Assembly: GCA_964418425.1 (NCBI GenBank)
Contig: CAYQLT010000003.1
Span: 4,513 to 68,512 of the forward strand
Length of the DNA: 64,000 nt
Reading direction: 5' to 3'
Source: an uncultured Clostridia bacterium
Lineage (GTDB): Bacteria; Bacillota; Limnochordia; Limnochordales; Geochordaceae
Made by a program: the position numbers and the translations under genes. Numbering within the stretch: the stretch's first letter is position 1; each line of letters opens with the position of its first letter. Shown piece after piece: positions 24,939 through 33,962 of this stretch. The notes under the pieces are model-generated. The model was given only the letters and a program-made list of their open reading frames with translations, was not told the DNA's origin and ran no database searches.

Positions 24939-25709
24939 TCAGGGTTCAACCCACACAGGAAAGCTTTGCCTGCGCAGGGCGCGCACTACCACGCGGGCAA
25001 CAGCATACCCGCCCAGGCGCCGGCAGGCGATTTCCCGGTCCGTCTCCACGCAGTCACCCGGCGACAGGCCGATGCGCGGATGCACGGGTGAAAACTCCGC
25101 CCGGTCTCCCGGCAGGGCGCCGGACACGTCGGCCGCTGCGGAAATGGGGATCCACGCTGTCACGTGGGAAATCCGGCCAGCCGACGACGCGTACTCAGCC
25201 GAAATGCGAAGCCGGCAGTCGAGGAACAGACGCCCCGGGGCCACCACCTCGCCCTTACATGCGGAGGCGAAATCCACGCCGCTGGGGTCCCACCGCCGCC
25301 GGTCCGGCACGGGCCGCACGGGGCGGTCGGGCGGCAACGACAGCTCCAGCCTGCCCGCGAGGATCTGGGCCGATCCCTCGCCCGTCAGCCGGTCGCCCTC
25401 AAGCCACAGCCGGCGCGCCCCGGGCGGGAAGAGCCGGACCGGACGGGAACCAGCCGCCGCCTCGTTCCCGTCCGGTGAGAGCGAGGTGTCCCCGGCGTTT
25501 GGTACGAGGGAGGTCTCCCTGGCGTCTGGCGCGAGGGAGGTCTCACTGGCGTTCGGGGCGCGGGAGACCTCCCTGGCATTCGGCCCGCGGGCAAGCTCCC
25601 CCGCGCCCGGCGCCAGCGCCACCATCAGCGCCAGGGTGCAGGCGCAGGTAAGTCCGATCACTCGGCCGGCCAGGGGACGCCGGGCTATCTTGCAGGGAGA
25701 GGCGCTCAC
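24939..25709 (-). CDS. secreted protein P4: nonapeptide-repeat linker plus a divergent copy of the P-family C-module
   Basis: GTG start 51 nt after the gvpO stop, with an N-terminal hydrophobic segment. Tandem repeats read PNAREVSR/APNASETSL/APDARETSL/VPNAGDTSL. The C-terminal IPISAAADVSGALPGDRAEF aligns with the FAGF..VPGA.PG motif. Confidence 0.5.
   Translation of the reverse strand: MSASPCKIARRPLAGRVIGLTCACTLALMVALAPGAGELARGPNAREVSRAPNASETSLAPDARETSLVPNAGDTSLSPDGNEAAAGSRPVRLFPPGARRLWLEGDRLTGEGSAQILAGRLELSLPPDRPVRPVPDRRRWDPSGVDFASACKGEVVAPGRLFLDCRLRISAEYASSAGRISHVTAWIPISAAADVSGALPGDRAEFSPVHPRIGLSPGDCVETDREIACRRLGGYAVARVVVRALRRQSFPVWVEP
25477..25584. repeat. 4 x 27-bp in-frame tandem repeat (a fifth degenerate unit runs to about 25611) inside P4
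   Basis: Units at 25477-25503, 25504-25530, 25531-25557 and 25558-25584 share the pattern (a/g)cgagggaggtctc(c/a)ctggcgt(c/t)(t/c)gg(c/g). Confidence 0.8.
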
Positions 25710-25760: not shown

Positions 25761-26060
25761 TCACCCGCCGCCCTGGACGTCTGTCTCGATTTGCGCACCC
25801 GGGATGGCTGCCTCCACGTCCCCCCGGTGCCTCAGTACCTGGCGCTCGAACTGCAGCACGTGCCCGTCGACGCTGGTGAGCACCTCGTAAAGGCCAATGA
25901 GGTCCATGGTGTCGGGGACGCCCCGGCGCTCCAGAAGCTCGATGCGAAGGCTCCATCCGTCCGCCCGTCGGGCGACGGCCACCACGCTGGAAAGCTCGAA
26001 CCCCGTCAGCGACTTCAGTTCCTGCACCGCCCGCTCCAAGATAGGCCCGAGCTCGGACAT
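25761..26060 (-). CDS. gvpO: gas vesicle protein GvpO
   Basis: 99 aa. LKSLTGFELSSVVAVARRADGWSLRIELLERRGVPDTMDLIGLYEVLTSVDGHVLQFERQVLRHRG follows the GvpO pattern (LtG..e.vs....dGW.v.vEvlE...iPdT.dl...YeV.ld..G.l..y.R). Confidence 0.85.
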   Translation of the reverse strand: MSELGPILERAVQELKSLTGFELSSVVAVARRADGWSLRIELLERRGVPDTMDLIGLYEVLTSVDGHVLQFERQVLRHRGDVEAAIPGAQIETDVQGGG

Positions 26061-26112
26061 GGCCCGCCCTCCTCTCGCAACCCTAGATGCTGCGCGGCGC
26101 GGTGAGCCACCC

Positions 26113-26457
26113 TCAGCCGCCGCCCCTCGACGGTGCCCGTTGTTCCAACGAGCACCGGAGGCTCTGCAGGGATCGGGAGTGATCGTCGGCGGTCGGTGGC
26201 ACGGCCGCCGTCGGCGCGTCGAGGGGGCTCCCCCGATCCGGCTCGGAACGGCGATCGGGCCCCTGGGCGTTCAGCCAGTCCGTCATGACGCCGTATCGCA
26301 GCATGGTCTCCACACTGGCCAACAACAGCCGGAGGTTGAGCGCGATGAGGGGCACCCCGGACAAGGTGATGAGCACGTCGGCATGCAACACCAGCCCCCG
26401 TTCCAGGGCCCGCTCCAGGAGGTCGGCCAGCTCACCCCGCACAGGCCGGACTGCCAT
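26113..26457 (-). CDS. GvpA/J/M-family small gas vesicle protein (GvpM/S-like)
   Basis: 114 aa from ATG 26457, just after the gvpL stop. The core LADLLERALERGLVLHADVLITLSGVPLIALNLRLLLASVETMLRYG is the GvpA-fold motif, followed by a Pro-rich tail. Confidence 0.75.
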   Translation of the reverse strand: MAVRPVRGELADLLERALERGLVLHADVLITLSGVPLIALNLRLLLASVETMLRYGVMTDWLNAQGPDRRSEPDRGSPLDAPTAAVPPTADDHSRSLQSLRCSLEQRAPSRGGG

Positions 26458-26459
26458 GC

Positions 26460-27548
26460 TCACCGGCCCTCCGGGCGACCCGCAGGCAGGTTCACGAAGC
26501 TGTACGGGGGCCAGGGGCCCGTCAGCCGGATCCGGTAGCCGTCCTCGTTGCACCCGTTCAGGCGCTCCAGGAGACCCTCTACCCGGTCGACGGGCACAAG
26601 ACACGAGAAGTTCCCGACCATCTCTGTGCCATCGGCCATCTCACGCAACCTCTCCGCCCGCACCGCGGCGCACGCAGCCTGCAGGAGGCTCTCCAGCTCT
26701 GCCGCTCGCCGGCGCCCGTCGGCCTCCAGCCGCTCTTCAAGCTGTCGCTCCAGTTCCCGGCGCAGCAGGTAGGCGGTGGCCGCCGGGGCATGCTCAAGGC
26801 GGTCACGAAGGGGCTGCAGCTCGCCGCAGCTCTGCAGGATCGCCTGCCTTGCCGTCTCGCCCTCCCGCAAGAGCTGCACGCCGTATTCCCTGCAGCCGCC
26901 GATGCGCTGAAGGATCTCACCGAGCAGCGGCGAGTGGGCCTGGATCCAGGCCTGCAGGGCTTGCGCCGGATCCTCCCCATCCCCGCCGATGATGGTGTCG
27001 AAGGCGACCGGGATCAGGTCCGGGCAGAGTTCTAAGACGCGCTCCAGAAGCCCCTGGTGCTCCCGAAGCCAGCGCTCCACCACGGCCCGATCCCGGGAGG
27101 CGTAGGGGCAGGGTGCGCACTCGTGCACCACGGCGAACCACTCCCCTGCCCGCACCAGCTTCACGGGGCATCCGTCAAGGCCCGTGCATCCTTCGGGCAG
27201 CCTGGCCGGGCCACGGCCGATGGCATAAAGGTAAAGCGCACCGTCGCGCCGGGCAGCGCTGGGGGCCCCCAGCGCCTGCGGTGCAGCAGCGGAGCCGGAG
27301 GCGACGGGTTCCCTGGACTTCGGGCCCTCACAGCCCGGCCGGGGCGTCTGCGTGGCGGCTTGCCCGGCCAGGCGCGCGACGCACTCGAGCACCCACGGGT
27401 CGAGGCCCTCCATCCCCAGCTCCTCAAGCACGCGCCGCAGGTCGGCCGCGTTCACGGGGGCTCCGGCGGCCTGCATCAACAAGGCCGCCAGTACCGCCGC
27501 CAGGGCTTCTCGGTCGGGGTCGCAGCGGCTCACCGGCCACGGTCCCAT
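26460..27548 (-). CDS. gvpL: GvpL/GvpF-family protein with an N-terminal extension of about 100 aa
   Basis: The core starts at LYLYAIGRG and ends in YRIRLTGPWPPYSFV (the GvpF/L hallmark). Residues 1-100 are extra. There is no alternative start codon near the core, and ATG 27548 overlaps the gvpK 3' end by 19 nt. Confidence 0.8.
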   Translation of the reverse strand: MGPWPVSRCDPDREALAAVLAALLMQAAGAPVNAADLRRVLEELGMEGLDPWVLECVARLAGQAATQTPRPGCEGPKSREPVASGSAAAPQALGAPSAARRDGALYLYAIGRGPARLPEGCTGLDGCPVKLVRAGEWFAVVHECAPCPYASRDRAVVERWLREHQGLLERVLELCPDLIPVAFDTIIGGDGEDPAQALQAWIQAHSPLLGEILQRIGGCREYGVQLLREGETARQAILQSCGELQPLRDRLEHAPAATAYLLRRELERQLEERLEADGRRRAAELESLLQAACAAVRAERLREMADGTEMVGNFSCLVPVDRVEGLLERLNGCNEDGYRIRLTGPWPPYSFVNLPAGRPEGR

Positions 27549-27838
27549 TGCGCCGATTGCGTGATTCGAGTCGACACGTCATCCACCAACCGATCCAGCG
27601 ACCGCCGTACAGACCGAACCACATCGGCAAGTCCTTGCTCAGCCTTGAGTCGCTCCAGGGCGCTGTCAAGCTCCATCAGTGCGGCCCCCAGGCGCTCCAC
27701 CTCAGCCCCCGTGAGGCGGCCGCCGCGCATCCGCTTGAGGGCCTCGGCCTCCAGCACGTCCCGGACGATCTCGACCAGCGCCACCACGAGGCCCAGCAAC
27801 CCCTGCTTCAGCTTTTCGCCGTCCACTTCGACAGCCAT
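27530..27838 (-). CDS. gvpK: gas vesicle protein GvpK
   Basis: 102 aa. LKQGLLGLVVALVEIVRDVLEAEALKRMRGGRLTGAEVERLGAALMEL matches the GvpK signature. Confidence 0.85.
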   Translation of the reverse strand: MAVEVDGEKLKQGLLGLVVALVEIVRDVLEAEALKRMRGGRLTGAEVERLGAALMELDSALERLKAEQGLADVVRSVRRSLDRLVDDVSTRITQSAQWDRGR

Positions 27839-28209
27839 GGCTCCACTTCGGCCTCCGGCCTCCCGCCGGTCGGCGGGAGGATTCTAGCCGGCGGCATCCA
27901 TCCGCACCACGGGCATCCTTCGGTCAGCAACAACTGGCGAGATTCCCCACGACCGCACGAAGGGCACGCTTCCCGAGCCGAGGACGCATGCCGCCAGCCG
28001 ATGGCGTCGAGGTTTACTCCCGAAGGGAACTCAAGACCGTAGCGGGCCGCAGTCTCAAAGGATGCGACGGCAGCCCGGATCTTGATCCCGAGAAGCTCCA
28101 CACCCACCACCGAGACCACGATGTCCGCATTGATCACAAGCCCTTTGTCCAGCAGCCGGTCCAGCAGGTCTACCACGGTGTAGGAAGTGCCCGGCCTGTC
28201 TGCTCCCAT
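27808..28209 (-). CDS. gvpJ: GvpJ-type (GvpA-fold) protein with a C-terminal CxxC...CxxC tail
   Basis: The core is VVDLLDRLLDKGLVINADIVVSVVGVELLGIKIRAAVASFETAARYG. The tail is ACPSCGRGESRQLLLTEGCPWCGW. Its 3' end overlaps gvpK by 31 nt. Confidence 0.85.
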   Translation of the reverse strand: MGADRPGTSYTVVDLLDRLLDKGLVINADIVVSVVGVELLGIKIRAAVASFETAARYGLEFPSGVNLDAIGWRHASSAREACPSCGRGESRQLLLTEGCPWCGWMPPARILPPTGGRPEAEVEPWLSKWTAKS

Positions 28210-28215
28210 TGCGGC

Positions 28216-28464
28216 TCACCCCTCCTCGACCGACCCGCCCGCAAGCGGGCCCGCCATCCGCTCGTACTCCGCTCGGGTTAGCTCTCCCAACGTCAGGGCC
28301 GCTTGCGCGTCCGCCAGCTCTTCGGGGATGGCCCCTTGGGACTCACGATGCTGCTCCCGGCGCGCCAGGGCCACTGCCTCGTCGAGGGCGGCCCAGGCAA
28401 CCCTGAGGGGCAGGGAGACGGGCAAGAACAAGAGATCCGCGAGCCCGAACCTCAGGATGGCCAT
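28216..28464 (-). CDS. gvpG: gas vesicle protein GvpG
   Basis: 82 aa. It has an N-terminal hydrophobic LADLLFLPVSLPLRVAWAAL and then a charged helix ending GELTRAEYERM, which is the GvpG pattern. It overlaps the gvpF 3' end by 13 nt. Confidence 0.75.
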   Translation of the reverse strand: MAILRFGLADLLFLPVSLPLRVAWAALDEAVALARREQHRESQGAIPEELADAQAALTLGELTRAEYERMAGPLAGGSVEEG

Positions 28465-29327
28465 AGCTCATCCCCATTCCGGGCATCCCGGTGCCCGTCC
28501 GGGCGTCGGGGCTCGCCCTCCGCACCCGCATCGCCCCCAGGGGGAGCCAGCCGCAGCTCTGTGAAGACAAACGGGGGCAGGGGAGCTGTGACCCGGAACC
28601 GAATGCGCCGCTGGATTCGGGCTTCCAGGTGCTCCACAGCCGTCCGCAGCGAACCCTCCGCTCCGGCCGGGATCAGGGCCGCGAAATTGAGGAGCATCCG
28701 GACGCCGATGGGCTCCCGCTCGCGCAGCTGCAGCACCTGTCCGGCGAGCGTGCGCCGCACCAGGTCCCCGTAACGCTGCCGCCAGGCGTGCGCCACCTGT
28801 TCGGTGAGTTCCCCGATCCGGGCCCGCACCAGTGCCGGCGCGGTGCGCGGCGCACCCCCGCCGGGCGCAAGCCACCGCCGGGCCACCGGGTGCTTGAGAA
28901 GTTCCCGTACCACGGCCTGGCGGTCCCAGAAGGCCACTACGGCCGCCTCCACCTTGCCCTGCATTCGGTGAAGTTCGGCACGCACCGCTGGCTCGTTGTA
29001 ACGTATCAGTTCCACCACTTCGGCCCGTCCGGGCGCCGCCACCCCGAACCGAAATGGGAGCACCGTCGCCCCGTTGGTCAGAAGCCAGCACGCCAACCCC
29101 GCGTGGCAGGCGAGGTCGTGGGGCGTTGGGCGGTCGATGGGACGCTGCAACGGGCTGGCCGCGACCACCAGGCCCTCCCACTCAACGAACTCCACCGGGG
29201 CTCCGCCGATACCGGGAGGGGGAGCACTGACGCCGCAAGGGAACTCGGCGCCATGAGCCGGTGCGCCGGGTTCGGTGGAGAGCGCCGGTCCGGAAAGCTC
29301 AGCGACGCCGTAAAGGTGCCAGACCAT
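28452..29327 (-). CDS. gvpF: GvpF/GvpL-family protein
   Basis: Start at MVWHLYGV with AGGAG upstream. It ends ...RFRVTAPLPPFVF plus a tail. The upstream 71 codons of the track ORF are probably not translated. Confidence 0.8.
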   Translation of the reverse strand: MVWHLYGVAELSGPALSTEPGAPAHGAEFPCGVSAPPPGIGGAPVEFVEWEGLVVAASPLQRPIDRPTPHDLACHAGLACWLLTNGATVLPFRFGVAAPGRAEVVELIRYNEPAVRAELHRMQGKVEAAVVAFWDRQAVVRELLKHPVARRWLAPGGGAPRTAPALVRARIGELTEQVAHAWRQRYGDLVRRTLAGQVLQLREREPIGVRMLLNFAALIPAGAEGSLRTAVEHLEARIQRRIRFRVTAPLPPFVFTELRLAPPGGDAGAEGEPRRPDGHRDARNGDELWPS

Positions 29328-29536
29328 GGCCAACTCCTGTCGATCCGTAGACCTGGGTGACTCGGGCCGCGTATGAGACGCGTACGATCCCCGATCCCAC
29401 GGTTCCGACAAACCAATGCGGGCCCGAAGCTTCCTCCAGTTCGCCGACCCGTTCGCAAGCCCAGCGCAGGAGCCGGAGCCATCGGCCCCCGCGACGGGGC
29501 CACACCGTGCTCGCCCTCTCTCTCGGCTCCATTTTG

Positions 29537-30457
29537 TCAATCCCCCTCGTGATCGGCAGGCCGCGCGGCGAGCGTGGGACCCAGCCGCAGGTGCCCTCCG
29601 GGTACGCCCACCACATCGGCCAAAAGCTGGCGAAATCGGGCATCCTGGGGATCCATTGGCAGGCCTTCGGCGGCCACCACCCTCGCCGCCATGAGCGAGC
29701 GGCGTAGCAGCGAGCCGAAGGCGCCCAGCCTGCCCTGCTCAAGCCGGCCGCGGACCGCCTCCACCAGGCGCCGCGCCGCCTCGGGCTCCATGCCGCACCG
29801 GCGGGCGACGATGACCGCCAGCTCCTCGAGGCCGTAGCCCGGCAGCCAGAGGGTCACGACCCTATCCAGCAAAGCCCGCTGCACGGCGTGCGAACCCACG
29901 GACTCGCCGGGGTCGCTGGTGAGGATCAGGCGAAAATCCTCGTGAACGGGCATCAGCGTCACCTCGTCCCGCGAGGTGGCCAGGGGTAGCACCCGCTCCT
30001 CCAGCACCGGCAACAGCACGCTGTGGGCCTCGGGCCTCGACCGGGTGAACTCGTCGTACACCACCGTGGCCCCGGTCCGGCAGGCAACCGCCAGGCGGTT
30101 GGGCACCCAGCGCTCGCTCACCAGCTCTTCCCGTTTGCGCACGTTGCGAATGAATTCGTCGACCACCAGGCGCCGCCGGTAGCTGACCGGGGCCCCCACA
30201 AGCTCGGCCGTCCCCAGCGCCTCGTCGCCGTGGACCAGGAAGACCGGGCGTGAACGCCGGTGTGCGAGGAGAAGGGCCAGCGTTGTCTTCCCGACCCCGG
30301 GCGGCCCGGCCAGGTGGACCGGGATGTTGAGAGAAAGGTACATCTCGGCCCGCCGGACCACCGAGAGCACCTCGGGTGTCAGCACCACTTCGCCTCGGGC
30401 GACGCCGGGCACGCTCCAGGTTTCGGTCGCAGGCAAGCTGAACTCCGACACCTTCAA
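29537..30457 (-). CDS. gvpN: gas vesicle AAA+ ATPase GvpN
   Basis: Walker A GPPGVGKTTLA and Walker B VVYDEFTRSRPE, with MoxR/CbbQ-like length (306 aa). It sits immediately after gvpA. TTG start. Confidence 0.9.
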   Translation of the reverse strand: MKVSEFSLPATETWSVPGVARGEVVLTPEVLSVVRRAEMYLSLNIPVHLAGPPGVGKTTLALLLAHRRSRPVFLVHGDEALGTAELVGAPVSYRRRLVVDEFIRNVRKREELVSERWVPNRLAVACRTGATVVYDEFTRSRPEAHSVLLPVLEERVLPLATSRDEVTLMPVHEDFRLILTSDPGESVGSHAVQRALLDRVVTLWLPGYGLEELAVIVARRCGMEPEAARRLVEAVRGRLEQGRLGAFGSLLRRSLMAARVVAAEGLPMDPQDARFRQLLADVVGVPGGHLRLGPTLAARPADHEGD

Positions 30458-30490
30458 ACCCGCCTCGGCCCCCGAGGGTCATGCCGCTTG

Positions 30491-30510
30491 CGCCGCCCAA
30501 CCTGGCGGCG
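30491..30510 (-). promoter_or_regulatory. 7-bp GC stem-loop (CGCCGCC-N6-GGCGGCG) in the gvpA-gvpN spacer; possible attenuator or processing site
   Basis: Read directly from the sequence. It lies in the 99-nt spacer after the highly expressed structural gene and has no U-tract. Confidence 0.25.
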
Positions 30511-30556
30511 AACACCCGTCGCGGCACGAGCCCCCGGGGATGCGGATGCGCGGCGG

Positions 30557-30772
30557 CTAGGCGGCCGCCGGCGCAGGGTGCAGAAGGCCAACCGCTTCAG
30601 CATACTTGAGCCAGGTATCCACCGAGGCCACAACGACGCGGGCCTCAACGGAAAGGAGCTCGATCCCCACCAACGAAACCTTCGCCCAGATGTCGACCAC
30701 CACACCTTTGTCGAGGACCCGGTCCAACACCTCGACAAGAGTGGAGGTCTGCATGGCCGTTTTGACGGACAA
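30557..30772 (-). CDS. gvpA: major gas vesicle structural protein GvpA
   Basis: (L/M)[62 protein letters not shown] is collinear with canonical GvpA. A TTG start at 30772 lies 8 nt after GGAGG and gives the canonical N-terminal length; ATG 30754 is the alternative. Confidence 0.92.
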
Positions 30773-31019
30773 CCTCGACTCCTCCCTTCCGGAACCTGAG
30801 CCAGAGGTGGCCGCGGTCACAGCCGCTCTAGTGTATGCTCCGGCTTCTTGGAGGCTTTCACCACCCCCGGCGTTGCCGGTTTCCCTCAAAACCTATGAGG
30901 GTGGCGAGAAAAGCGGGATGGCTCCGCGGTCCTGACCGGGAAGGGGTAGGGGAAACCGACCTGCCGGTGCGGGGGGGACCCGGCCGGGAGCAACGCCGTT
31001 TCGAAACGAGAAACCCGCC

Positions 31020-32831
31020 TCAGGGATGCCAGCGCACGATACGACGTTCGGCCGCCCTCAGGGCCCAGTTGCTCCCGATGCCTAGAGCGGACAGGACGAC
31101 GATACCCGCCATCAGCCGGCTTACCAGCATCAGCTCGCCGCCCTGCAAGATCAAGAAGCCCAGTCCTGCGGAGGCGGCGATCATCTCCGCTGAGACCACC
31201 AGCAAAAGCGCCATCCCGGCCCCCAGGCGAAGTCCGGCGAAGACGGTGGGCAAGGCCCCGACGATGGAGACCTTGGAAATGACCTGCAACGGCCGGGCCC
31301 CCAGGCTTCGAGCCGCCCGTACCAGTGAGGAGTCCACGCCCCGGACGCCCGCCGCGGTGTTAACGGCCACCGGGAAAAAGACGCCGATGGCGATGACGGC
31401 CACCTTGGAGGTCTCGCCGATCCCCAGCCACAGCACCAGCAGGGGAAGAATGGCAATCTTCGGGATGGGGTAAGTGAGGGCGATGAGGGGGTCAAGCAAC
31501 GCATCGGCCAGGGCGGACAGCCCGATGCCAAGCCCCACGGCAAACCCGGCCCCCGAGCCCACCAGCCAGCCCAGCACGATGCGACGCAGGCTCAGGCTCA
31601 GGCTCCCCAGCAGTTCGCCCGTGGCTACCAACCGGGCGAGCTCCGCCACGACGTCGGAGAGGCGGGGGAGAAAAAGCGGCGGGATCAGGCCGGCCCGCGC
31701 CACGCTTTCCCACACCACCAGCACCAGAACCACCGACGCCGCTCCCAGCCATCCCCTCGGGAGCGGCCGCCGGGCCGCAGCGGGGCTGCGGGATGCCGCC
31801 AGGACAGCTTTCGAAGATGAGGGTGACGGTTCCAGCGGGTCTGCCCCGCCCGCCGTATCCTGCCTGCCGCCCTCCTCACGACGGGCGGCTGCTGGGACAG
31901 CGGTGAGTTCGTCGCCGCGCGGCAAAGCCTCGCCAGCCGAACGCTGTGGCGACAGCGCGTGTCGGGCGGCAGCAGGAAGTCGGGAGCCGGTCCGACCGTC
32001 CAGCTCCCACATGGCCTGCCGGGCGTCGTCCCGGATCAAGGTCCACAGCCGGTGGGTGAACGCTGCAAACTCGGCGCTGGCCGTCAACGCCTCGGTGCGG
32101 GGGCGGTCGAAAGGCACCCGCAACTCTGCGCGGACCCGCCCCGGCCGACGGCTCATGAGGATGATCCGGTCGGCGAGAAACGCCGCCTCCTCGATGTTGT
32201 GGGTCACGTAGAGCACCGTCTGGCCGGTTCGGCTCCACAGGTCCAGCAGGTCCTGCTGCAGCAAAGCCCGGGTTTGGGCATCCAGCGCCGACAGTGGCTC
32301 GTCCATCAGCAACACCCGCGGACCCACAGCCAGTGCCCGGGCGATGCCCACCCGTTGTTTCATGCCTCCCGACAGCTCGGAGGGAAGTCGACCCTCCACG
32401 GAGTGAAGCCCCACCCGCGCCAGCCACTCGCGCCCCACCGCCTGGCGGCGCGCCCGGCTCACCCCTCGCACCTCCAGGCCGAACGTCACGTTGTCCAGTA
32501 CGGTGCGCCACGGGAACAGGGCGAACTCCTGGAACACCATCGCGGTGAGGGCCCGCTCCCCGCCGGAGCCTGCCTGCCGCGGTCCTGCCCCGCTGCCCCG
32601 GGCGCCTCGCACCCCAGGGCCCACGTCGAGAAACCGAACCTGCCCCGCGGACGGCGGCAAAAACCCCGCCACCACCGACAAAAGGGTGGACTTGCCGCAC
32701 CCGCTGGGGCCCAGGATGGCCACGAACTCGCCCGACTCCACCTGGAAGCTGACGTCTTCCAGCGCCACGACGCCCTCCCGGCCGTGGCGGCCGGGAAAAC
32801 GCACATGCAACCGGTCGACCTCAACGCGCAC
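31020..32831 (-). CDS. fused ABC ATPase-permease of the NitT/TauT (SsuB-SsuC-like) family
   Basis: The N-half has GPSGCGKST, LSGGMKQRVGIARAL and LLMDEPLSALD. A Pro/Ala-rich linker follows. The C-half is a 6-TM BPD permease (VRAARSLGARPLQVISKVSIVGALP). It is a single uninterrupted 603-codon frame. Confidence 0.8.
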   Translation of the reverse strand: MRVEVDRLHVRFPGRHGREGVVALEDVSFQVESGEFVAILGPSGCGKSTLLSVVAGFLPPSAGQVRFLDVGPGVRGARGSGAGPRQAGSGGERALTAMVFQEFALFPWRTVLDNVTFGLEVRGVSRARRQAVGREWLARVGLHSVEGRLPSELSGGMKQRVGIARALAVGPRVLLMDEPLSALDAQTRALLQQDLLDLWSRTGQTVLYVTHNIEEAAFLADRIILMSRRPGRVRAELRVPFDRPRTEALTASAEFAAFTHRLWTLIRDDARQAMWELDGRTGSRLPAAARHALSPQRSAGEALPRGDELTAVPAAARREEGGRQDTAGGADPLEPSPSSSKAVLAASRSPAAARRPLPRGWLGAASVVLVLVVWESVARAGLIPPLFLPRLSDVVAELARLVATGELLGSLSLSLRRIVLGWLVGSGAGFAVGLGIGLSALADALLDPLIALTYPIPKIAILPLLVLWLGIGETSKVAVIAIGVFFPVAVNTAAGVRGVDSSLVRAARSLGARPLQVISKVSIVGALPTVFAGLRLGAGMALLLVVSAEMIAASAGLGFLILQGGELMLVSRLMAGIVVLSALGIGSNWALRAAERRIVRWHP

Positions 32832-32894
32832 GGGACAGCGCCCCCGCCCGGCGGCTCAGCGTGCGGGCCGCAGCCCCGGCGCCTGCTCCCCCGC

Positions 32895-33962
32895 TCACCG
32901 GAGCGTCGCCAGGGCCTCCTCGACGAAGGACATGTCCACGAACTCGGCGGGATCCACCACCCGAGTCAGCATGCCCTGCGCCTTATACCACTCCTGCTGC
33001 TGGATGAGGTCCTGCACGTCCACCCGTGCGTCCGGGTCGATGTAGGATAGCGAACGGGCGATGGCCTGGGGCTGGGCCCCGGTGTAGCGGGCTACCAGGC
33101 CCAGCAGCTCCTCGAACTCCGCCGACCCCGGCCCGCCGCGGCCCGATTCGCCGAAGGCCGCCTGGCGGTACCATCGGACGCCCCGGATGTAGCCGCGCAT
33201 GAAGCGCACGCCCACGTCCCGGCGCTGGCGCATCCGGTCCGAGAAGAAGACCCCGGTCACCTGGTACGGCAGCAGGTCTCCGGCCCAGAAGACCACCCGT
33301 CCCCAGCCCTCCTCTTCGGCGTTGGCCCCCCAGGGCGGCGACACCAGGGCCGCATCCACCGTCCCCTGCTTGACGGCCTCCAGCATGACCGAGATGCTCC
33401 GCAGGGGCACCAGCTCCACGTCCTTGAGCGTCAGTCCGTTGCGCTCCAGGATCCGGCCGATCTGGTAATGGTACGTGGAGCCCAGCTGGGTGATCCCGAT
33501 GCGGGTGCCCTTCAGGTCCCGCACGCTCCGTAACCCGGCCTCATACCTTGCCCGGCTGGTGACCAGGGCGTTGAGGCGATATCCGGGGCGCTCCGAACCC
33601 CGGTCGGCCACCAGGATGATGCGGGCGCCCTGGGCGATGCTGTTAAACAGCGCTCCGGTGATGCCCGTCGCCCCCACGTCCAGGTCTCCGGACGCCACGG
33701 CCACCGCGATGGGTGAGGCCGCCGCAAACCATTCGAACCGAACATCCAGGCCCTCGGCCGCGAAATACCCCTTCTCGACCCCCACGAACAGGGGGGCGCC
33801 GCCGATGAGCTTCAGCGTCCCCACGCTGACCACCTCCGGCCGCCCCGGCGCCGCAGCACCCGCCTGCGCGGCGGCCAGCGCCGCCAGCATGAGGCTGGTC
33901 AGCAGGACGGCGGACCGGACCATGTCCCGCCGCACCCCTAAAAGACCTGTGCACAACTGCAT
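32895..33962 (-). CDS. ABC substrate-binding protein, NMT1/SsuA/TauA-like
   Basis: Signal peptide, then GTLKLIGGAPLFVGVEKGYFAAEGLDVRFEWF and DLDVGATGITGALFN. It lies upstream of the fused ATPase-permease. Confidence 0.8.
   Translation of the reverse strand: MQLCTGLLGVRRDMVRSAVLLTSLMLAALAAAQAGAAAPGRPEVVSVGTLKLIGGAPLFVGVEKGYFAAEGLDVRFEWFAAASPIAVAVASGDLDVGATGITGALFNSIAQGARIILVADRGSERPGYRLNALVTSRARYEAGLRSVRDLKGTRIGITQLGSTYHYQIGRILERNGLTLKDVELVPLRSISVMLEAVKQGTVDAALVSPPWGANAEEEGWGRVVFWAGDLLPYQVTGVFFSDRMRQRRDVGVRFMRGYIRGVRWYRQAAFGESGRGGPGSAEFEELLGLVARYTGAQPQAIARSLSYIDPDARVDVQDLIQQQEWYKAQGMLTRVVDPAEFVDMSFVEEALATLR

Follow-up and report, generated by a model that had tools for sequence, protein, structure and literature searches.

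A compact, predicted gas-vesicle operon in a Geochordaceae genome of the class Limnochordia

A block of nine closely packed genes in the genome of an uncultured Geochordaceae bacterium (class Limnochordia), found in a 64,000-nucleotide (nt) stretch of contig CAYQLT010000003.1 (hereafter the window), raises two questions: whether these genes form a complete and intact gas-vesicle (gvp) cluster, and what such a cluster might do in a host of this kind. A preliminary description, made by inspection of the sequence, had read them as gas-vesicle genes. Here, we report a computational analysis of the locus, its relatives and its surroundings. We find that gvpA-N-F-G-J-K-L-M(S)-O are nine minus-strand open reading frames (ORFs), all in the same direction, at 25761-30772, that the set is complete by comparison with two experimental minimal sets, that its frames are intact and that its order is conserved across genera. 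The locus is very probably a complete, intact gas-vesicle operon, gvpA-gvpN-(orfX)-gvpF-G-J-K-L-M-O, of the zinc-ribbon-GvpJ / J-K-L-M type, in a probably thermophilic Geochordaceae host. Its expression, the formation of vesicles and what these would do for the organism (give buoyancy to cells or to resting forms) are predicted from homology. In kind, it is an ordinary gas-vesicle operon in an unusual host, such operons being already well known.

Gene content and integrity of the cluster

Genes were called from Pfam and NCBIfam profile searches, with the curated cut-offs as thresholds. The nine genes, all on the minus strand (-), are as follows (aa, amino acids).

30557-30772 (-), gvpA, major shell protein, 71 aa, TTG start; PF00741, 51.8 bits (cut-off 25)
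29537-30457 (-), gvpN, AAA+ ATPase, 306 aa; AAA_5, 65.6 bits (cut-off 22)
28452-29327 (-), gvpF, 291 aa, ATG start with an AGGAG Shine-Dalgarno sequence; PF06386, 130.2 bits
28216-28464 (-), gvpG, 82 aa, overlapping gvpF by 13 nt; PF05120, 25.9 bits, E 1.2e-5
27808-28209 (-), gvpJ, 133 aa; PF00741, 57.8 bits; top NCBIfam model GvpJ
27530-27838 (-), gvpK, 102 aa, overlapping gvpJ by 31 nt; PF05121, 65.8 bits (cut-off 25)
26460-27548 (-), gvpL, 362 aa; PF06386, 185.6 bits; NF045778 (GvpL), 139 bits
26113-26463 (-), minor protein of the GvpA fold, gvpM/gvpS type, 114-116 aa, coupled with the stop of gvpL (GTGA); PF00741, 44.6 bits
25761-26060 (-), gvpO (homologue of Bacillus megaterium gvpR), 99 aa; PF05800, 67.1 bits (cut-off 25)

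Eight of the nine genes score at, above or near the curated thresholds, GvpG being the exception, and the name, coordinates and place in the order that had been assigned by eye hold for all nine, two starts excepted. The cluster is as compact as first described. Overlaps of the 13-31 nt then claimed for the packing of the genes are found at three junctions only (F/G, 13 nt; J/K, 31 nt; K/L, 19 nt), and the remaining junctions are gaps (A/N, 99 nt; N/F, 209 nt; G/J, 6 nt; L/M, ~0 nt; M/O, 52 nt). The short overlaps, together with the GTGA junctions, suggest translational coupling.

The shell protein is assigned with particular clarity. GvpA scores 116.3 bits with NCBIfam model NF006874 (cut-off 100), and its residues 1-65 align to 7R1C (B. 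megaterium) and its residues 2-68 to 8GBS (Anabaena) with an E value of 2e-24, both being solved vesicle shell proteins. Because the alignment begins at residue 1, the TTG start at 30772 is supported; it is preceded, 7 nt away, by a GGGAGGAG Shine-Dalgarno sequence. The putative assignment of GvpG, which scores below its Pfam cut-off, draws support from synteny, through 58% identity to the syntenic ORF of Carboxydochorda subterranea, the second carrier described below, and a position between F and J, as in characterised clusters. The top NCBIfam model for the GvpM-like protein is the haloarchaeal GvpM (49.6 bits); this protein and GvpJ both fall below the haloarchaeal 'exception' cut-offs of NCBIfam, as expected of bacterial proteins.

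Two starts were revised. We place that of gvpF at ATG 29327, not at 29540, on the basis of the Carboxydochorda comparison, of a 291-aa gene call in L095 and of the sequence itself; a 71-codon N-terminal extension was rejected, as the equivalent Carboxydochorda frame has stops. The GvpM-like protein, also judged from the sequence itself, starts at GTG 26463 or ATG 26457, not at 26604; the 49-codon extension that the latter would give was likewise discarded, the equivalent Carboxydochorda frame again carrying stops.

Two independent run assemblies carry identical DNA over 26537-33457, and thus the gvp frames are not assembly artefacts. A whole-genome search found no second gvp locus. As the preliminary description had said, there is no GvpC-like protein: the cluster contains no GvpC-type repeat protein, and PF01304 (GvpC, 33-aa repeats) has zero matches in the genome, a search of unverified sensitivity, as the control genomes were silent for this family too.

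Comparison with characterised clusters

Two experimental systems define what a gas-vesicle cluster needs. The essential genes of Halobacterium are A, F, G, J, K, L, M and O, and haloarchaeal N enlarges bicones (PMC9501494); those of B. megaterium are B/A, N, F, G, L, S, K and J, with GvpR, GvpT and GvpU dispensable (PMC11223475). Taking the profile assignments as they stand, the window set equals the haloarchaeal essentials plus N and contains all eight B. megaterium essentials. The locus is thus a useful minimal cluster, as had been proposed, and not a new one, as the set matches these experimental minimal sets and equally compact clusters are common. The accompanying claim that gvpR, gvpT and gvpU are lacking has to be qualified for gvpR, since GvpO is homologous to GvpR of B. 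megaterium (PMC11445434) and in the window matches the position of gvpR in Halobacillus loci. Neither gvpT nor gvpU is among the genes of the cluster, no search with reference sequences having been made for them.

The B. megaterium cluster gvpB-R-N-F-G-L-S-K-J-T-U (pNL29) resembles that of the window in its Firmicute host, in the absence of GvpC, in having counterparts of all eight essentials and in the correspondence of GvpR with GvpO. It differs in carrying L-S-K-J where the window has J-K-L-M, and in placing GvpR before N where the window has GvpO last. The window GvpJ carries a zinc ribbon and its GvpL an extra N-terminal domain, and its GvpN is ~40% identical to Bacillaceae GvpN. The F-G-J-K-L-M order is common to the window and to the Halobacterium salinarum p-vac (gvpACNO / gvpDEFGHIJKLM) and Methanosarcina barkeri gvpAAA-NOFG-JHKLM clusters; in contrast to these archaeal clusters, that of the window lacks GvpC, GvpH, GvpI and the regulators GvpD/E, and forms a single one-strand operon in a bacterial host. 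The ten-gene gvp operon of Thermacetogenium phaeum, known only from the genome, also belongs to a thermophilic Firmicute and differs from that of the window in having four gvpA-type genes and GvpC (PMC3551663). Gas-vesicle operons of thermophilic Firmicutes are therefore already on record.

Zinc-ribbon GvpJ and extended GvpL

GvpJ has a core of the GvpA type, followed towards the C-terminus by a CPSC-x13-CPWC zinc ribbon and a tail specific to the clade. All four cysteines are kept in Carboxydochorda, and the 21-residue four-cysteine span is present in 120 of 120 of the best GvpJ homologues (best 120 of 3327). In the AlphaFold2 model, residues 80-110 have a predicted local distance difference test score (pLDDT) of 90-95; a fold search with this model gave nothing significant, zinc-finger proteins ranking top at E > 2. 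We compared 80 GvpN-bearing loci from many phyla. A ribbon-bearing GvpA-fold protein occurs in 16 of these, and the order Jz-K-L (Jz, zinc-ribbon GvpJ) is found in 9 of the 16 zinc-ribbon loci as against 2 of 22 other K-containing loci. As the ribbon is in all 120 best homologues and is tied to the J-K-L order, these comparisons identify it as the mark of a widespread cluster type and not as a peculiarity of this genome. In our literature search we found no paper describing a GvpJ zinc ribbon. In some clusters, such as that of a Pelotomaculum sp. MAG (metagenome-assembled genome; L040), a long protein of the GvpM type carries the four-cysteine ribbon in addition to GvpJ.

Zinc-ribbon-GvpJ / J-K-L-M clusters, in which a CPxC-x13-CPWC tail is followed by K-L-M, are found in uncultured anaerobes, namely Atribacterota, Dehalococcoidia, Desulfobacterales, Aerophobetes, Thermoplasmata and Pelotomaculum, and an Atribacterota locus (L046) shares its N-F-J-K-L-S-O order with the window. 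These clusters are mostly larger (extra GvpF copies, O before J) and differ in being without the GvpL N-terminal domain or orfX. Clusters of similar content are common among the 80 loci.

GvpL is laid out as a three-helix N-terminal domain (residues 11-63; 27360-27518, -), a disordered linker of ~40 residues (64-101) and the GvpF/L core. In the AlphaFold2 model the N-terminal domain has a pLDDT of 83-90 and the linker of ~30, and the core has significant fold matches to 6L5D and 4QSG, both crystal structures of GvpF (E 1e-13, TM score 0.75). The N-terminal domain is kept in three clade GvpL sequences and was found nowhere else: it has no Pfam, NCBIfam or PDB sequence match, and an exhaustive phmmer search returned one clade GvpL and repeat proteins only. 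A ribosomal-stalk-like identity, considered for this domain, was supported neither by Pfam nor by a fold search of the whole model.

Host and distribution

The host genome is a Geochordaceae MAG of 3.34 Mb, 92% complete and with 69% G+C. The run accessions SRR11582147 and SRR11582148 turned up in no paper of the literature searched. The amino-acid make-up of the genome gives an optimal growth temperature of roughly ~63 °C, by a formula that the high G+C may bias, and the host is probably heat-loving. Gas_vesicle domains occur in 2 of 95 Limnochordia species genomes (52 genera) and in 2 of 7 genomes of the family, both carriers being Geochordaceae. Apart from mentions in a reference list, our literature search found no paper that connects gas vesicles with Limnochordia. 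The host lineage is thus as notable as the preliminary description had supposed.

The second carrier is C. subterranea L945, also catalogued as VKM B-3704 and JCM 39509, of the same family and a different genus, a cultured, thermophilic, diderm bacterium from a deep aquifer (PMC11456536). Its cluster, which carries an automatic NCBI annotation, has the identical nine-gene order and shares the zinc-ribbon GvpJ, the GvpL N-terminal domain and the spacer ORF; the TTG start of gvpA is kept too. Protein identities to the window are 83% for A, 63% for N (the best match of GvpN), 37% for F, 58% for G, 63% for J, 60% for K, 45% for L, 54% for M and 61% for O. The gvp neighbourhoods are different: a comparison of the 64-kb window with 19 kb around the Carboxydochorda cluster showed nothing shared beyond the nine genes (plus orfX), and hence the conserved unit runs exactly from gvpA to gvpO. 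Two metagenomic contigs of the clade (L097 and L099) have the same gene order as far as they extend. A single-protein genome scan for further clade members found none, and metagenome scans with GvpL and GvpM alignments gave either none or distant O-J-K-L-M clusters without orfX.

GvpN of the window falls inside the GvpN tree. There it groups with its Carboxydochorda counterpart and four metagenomic sequences in a well-supported clade on a long branch, for which no donor lineage is evident.

Two side observations concern the family. Thin sections of Geochorda subterranea LN show 'filamentous electron-transparent structures' (PMC11456536, Figure 2 legend). A complete 3.0-Mb family genome (G001), probably that of strain LN, has no Gas_vesicle domain, and these structures are therefore unlikely to be gas vesicles. 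The host genome itself encodes a sigma-E equivalog (369 bits, above cut-off) and a close paralogue (259 bits, possibly sigma-K), at C42:21753-22442 and C1:185139-185768, and has the genotype of a spore-former, though the family is without described spores.

Region upstream of gvpA

Two non-coding segments flank the shell protein gene.

30773-31019 (-), presumed promoter region of gvpA, 247 nt, assigned by inspection of the upstream sequence
30458-30556 (-), spacer between gvpA and gvpN, containing a G+C-rich hairpin that might act as an attenuator or stabilise the RNA; minimum free energy -63 kcal/mol

The upstream region contains a -10-like CATACACTA at 30829-30837 (-), 57 nt before the gvpA start, which fits mother-cell -10 consensus patterns of Bacillus. 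The CATACACT motif is rare and CATACACTA is locally improbable. The motif has 25 copies in the genome, which stand ahead of housekeeping genes, for example glnA and gdh, and not of sporulation genes; because of this, the CATACACT motif is probably an ordinary TAnnnT -10 element. A sporulation-type (sigma-E/K) promoter before gvpA was rejected on these grounds and because the motif is not kept in Carboxydochorda. A structured RNA in the gvpA-gvpN spacer was also discarded, as the hairpin has a z score of -1.67 against shuffled sequences, which is not significant, and no Rfam match.

A candidate tenth gene

Between gvpN and gvpF lies a small ORF that had been overlooked in the preliminary description.

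29299-29532 (-), orfX, unannotated candidate gene, 77 aa; ATG 4 nt past the gvpN stop, stop 28 nt inside gvpF

Its frame is open in five of five relatives, the other two frames having 4 and 3 stops, and it gives the top cross-species BLOSUM62 score (508 versus 371 and 341). When its DNA was aligned without bias to that of L097, differences were most frequent at the third codon position (28/40, against 16/41 and 16/40 for the others). The peptides of the relatives align, are ~70-77 aa long, begin at or adjoining the gvpN stop and end just inside gvpF. One relative only (L101, 1292-1519) has the equivalent called as a gene, of 75 aa. The conserved C-terminus, GHGLAP-RRR, arises because this part of the ORF overlaps the conserved start of gvpF. 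Several observations count against a real gene: G+C at third codon positions is only 0.67 in the window copy, the start positions differ among relatives, the peptide has no Pfam, NCBIfam or PDB sequence match, and a profile built from it found nothing outside the clade, proteobacterial loci included. On balance, we lean slightly towards orfX being a real gene. A short GvpO/GvpR paralogue was considered and dismissed (hhalign probability 0.1).

In Serratia sp. ATCC 39006, the small gene gvpV lies between gvpN and gvpF1, and its loss leaves bicones only (PMC4982088). The position of orfX is that of Serratia gvpV. No sequence relationship could be shown, as a search of proteobacterial loci with the orfX profile came back empty, and the two genes are therefore analogous in position alone.

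Proposed working and alternative readings

By homology, GvpA would polymerise into a ribbed, gas-permeable, water-excluding shell. The GvpA-like GvpJ and GvpM may form a seeding complex with GvpF, GvpL, GvpG and GvpK, and the AAA+ protein GvpN, aided by GvpO, would then grow the initial bicones into cylinders. The shell would be unbraced without GvpC, as in B. megaterium.

Several observations weigh against a working operon. GvpG lies under the PF05120 gathering score of 30.6, and GvpN, with 258.2 bits, is slightly under the equivalog cut-off of TIGR02640 (266.8). GvpN also deviates in 9 of 68 highly conserved columns, the highest number in a set of 120 homologues. One of its substitutions, N182D (TSN to TSD; 29912-29914, -), is unique, Asn being present in 119 of the 120, and falls at what is probably the sensor-1 asparagine; N145H and N146S, by which His-Ser replaces a near-invariant Asn-Asn, are rare, and the Carboxydochorda protein differs in keeping the canonical N145, N146 and N182. 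A sigma-70 consensus scan upstream of gvpA found no promoter, the conserved unit holds no regulator gene, and 93 of the 95 Limnochordia species genomes are without gvp genes. The paper describing C. subterranea makes no mention of gas vesicles (PMC11456536), and in T. phaeum vesicles were looked for and never seen, a comparable cluster thus being silent in culture (PMC3551663). A cluster that is cryptic or impaired, either silent in ordinary growth or yielding small bicones only from a weakened GvpN, would agree with the GvpN substitutions and with the absence of vesicles from the description of the cultured relative, and silent clusters have precedents in T. phaeum (PMC3551663) and Streptomyces coelicolor (PMC4982088). 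We nevertheless consider it unlikely. The gvp frames are intact, and their order conserved, in at least five diverged relatives; Walker A (GPPGVGKTT), Walker B (VVYDEF) and the conserved arginines of GvpN are all intact. The other GvpN proteins of the clade and those of Bacillaceae deviate at 5-7 of the same 68 columns, and for this reason the substitutions are grounds for caution and not evidence of decay.

If the operon is intact and working, what it is for and how it came to the host can be asked in turn. Instead of keeping growing cells buoyant, vesicles might belong to resting or spore-like stages or help dispersal in subsurface water. The host encodes sigma-E over the equivalog cut-off, Geochordaceae form round bodies, spore-linked gas vesicles have been reported in Desulfosporosinus, Desulfofarcimen and 'Desulforudis' (PMC12739157), and CATACACTA, resembling mother-cell -10 elements, stands upstream of gvpA. 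This last argument is undone by the absence of the motif from Carboxydochorda and by its genome-wide association with housekeeping genes; moreover, the SPOCS-type neighbours of the cluster are not beside it in the relative, and spores are not described for Geochordaceae in the literature. A role confined to resting forms or dispersal therefore strikes us as improbable. As to origin, the patchy occurrence in the family and class and the differing neighbourhoods of the two carriers could point to a recent, horizontally acquired island in place of an inherited family trait. The G+C of the cluster matches its surroundings, however, its flanks revealed neither repeats nor tRNA or mobile genes, the GvpN clade has no identifiable donor, and protein identities of 37-83% fit between-genus divergence. 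Recent acquisition seems to us distinctly unlikely, and the data are accounted for at least equally well by descent within the family with later loss. We retain the complete, intact operon as our reading of the locus.

Significance

The main interest of the cluster lies in its rare host lineage and in a cultured relative that allows a functional test. With it, the range of gas-vesicle genes comes to include Limnochordia, a class of diderm, probably thermophilic Firmicutes of deep aquifers and heated soils, and because cultured C. subterranea L945 has the same cluster, vesicle formation at ~55 °C can be tested directly. As it holds exactly the genes essential in two model systems, the 5-kb cluster is a convenient natural template for heterologous or thermostable vesicles; comparably small clusters are already in use. 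The spacer ORF and the GvpL N-terminal domain are minor new additions to the list of accessory parts, never examined before. More tentatively, and less likely than not, the cluster could be a naturally minimal high-temperature system with assembly parts of its own, namely a coupled orfX at the GvpV position, which might act in the bicone-to-cylinder transition, and a tethered three-helix domain on GvpL. If so, diderm Firmicutes living in deep aquifers would make vesicles at temperatures of 55 °C and upwards.

Neighbouring genes

Just downstream of gvpO is the gene for a secreted SPOCS-like protein (24939-25709), in which four tandem 27-nt repeats (25469-25603) encode 9-aa repeats. Directly upstream of gvpA, a 603-aa single polypeptide (31020-32831, -) is encoded in which an ATP-binding cassette (ABC) ATPase is fused to a binding-protein-dependent permease domain, and this fusion gene is closely preceded, on its upstream side, by the gene for an NMT1-type substrate-binding protein (32895-33962).

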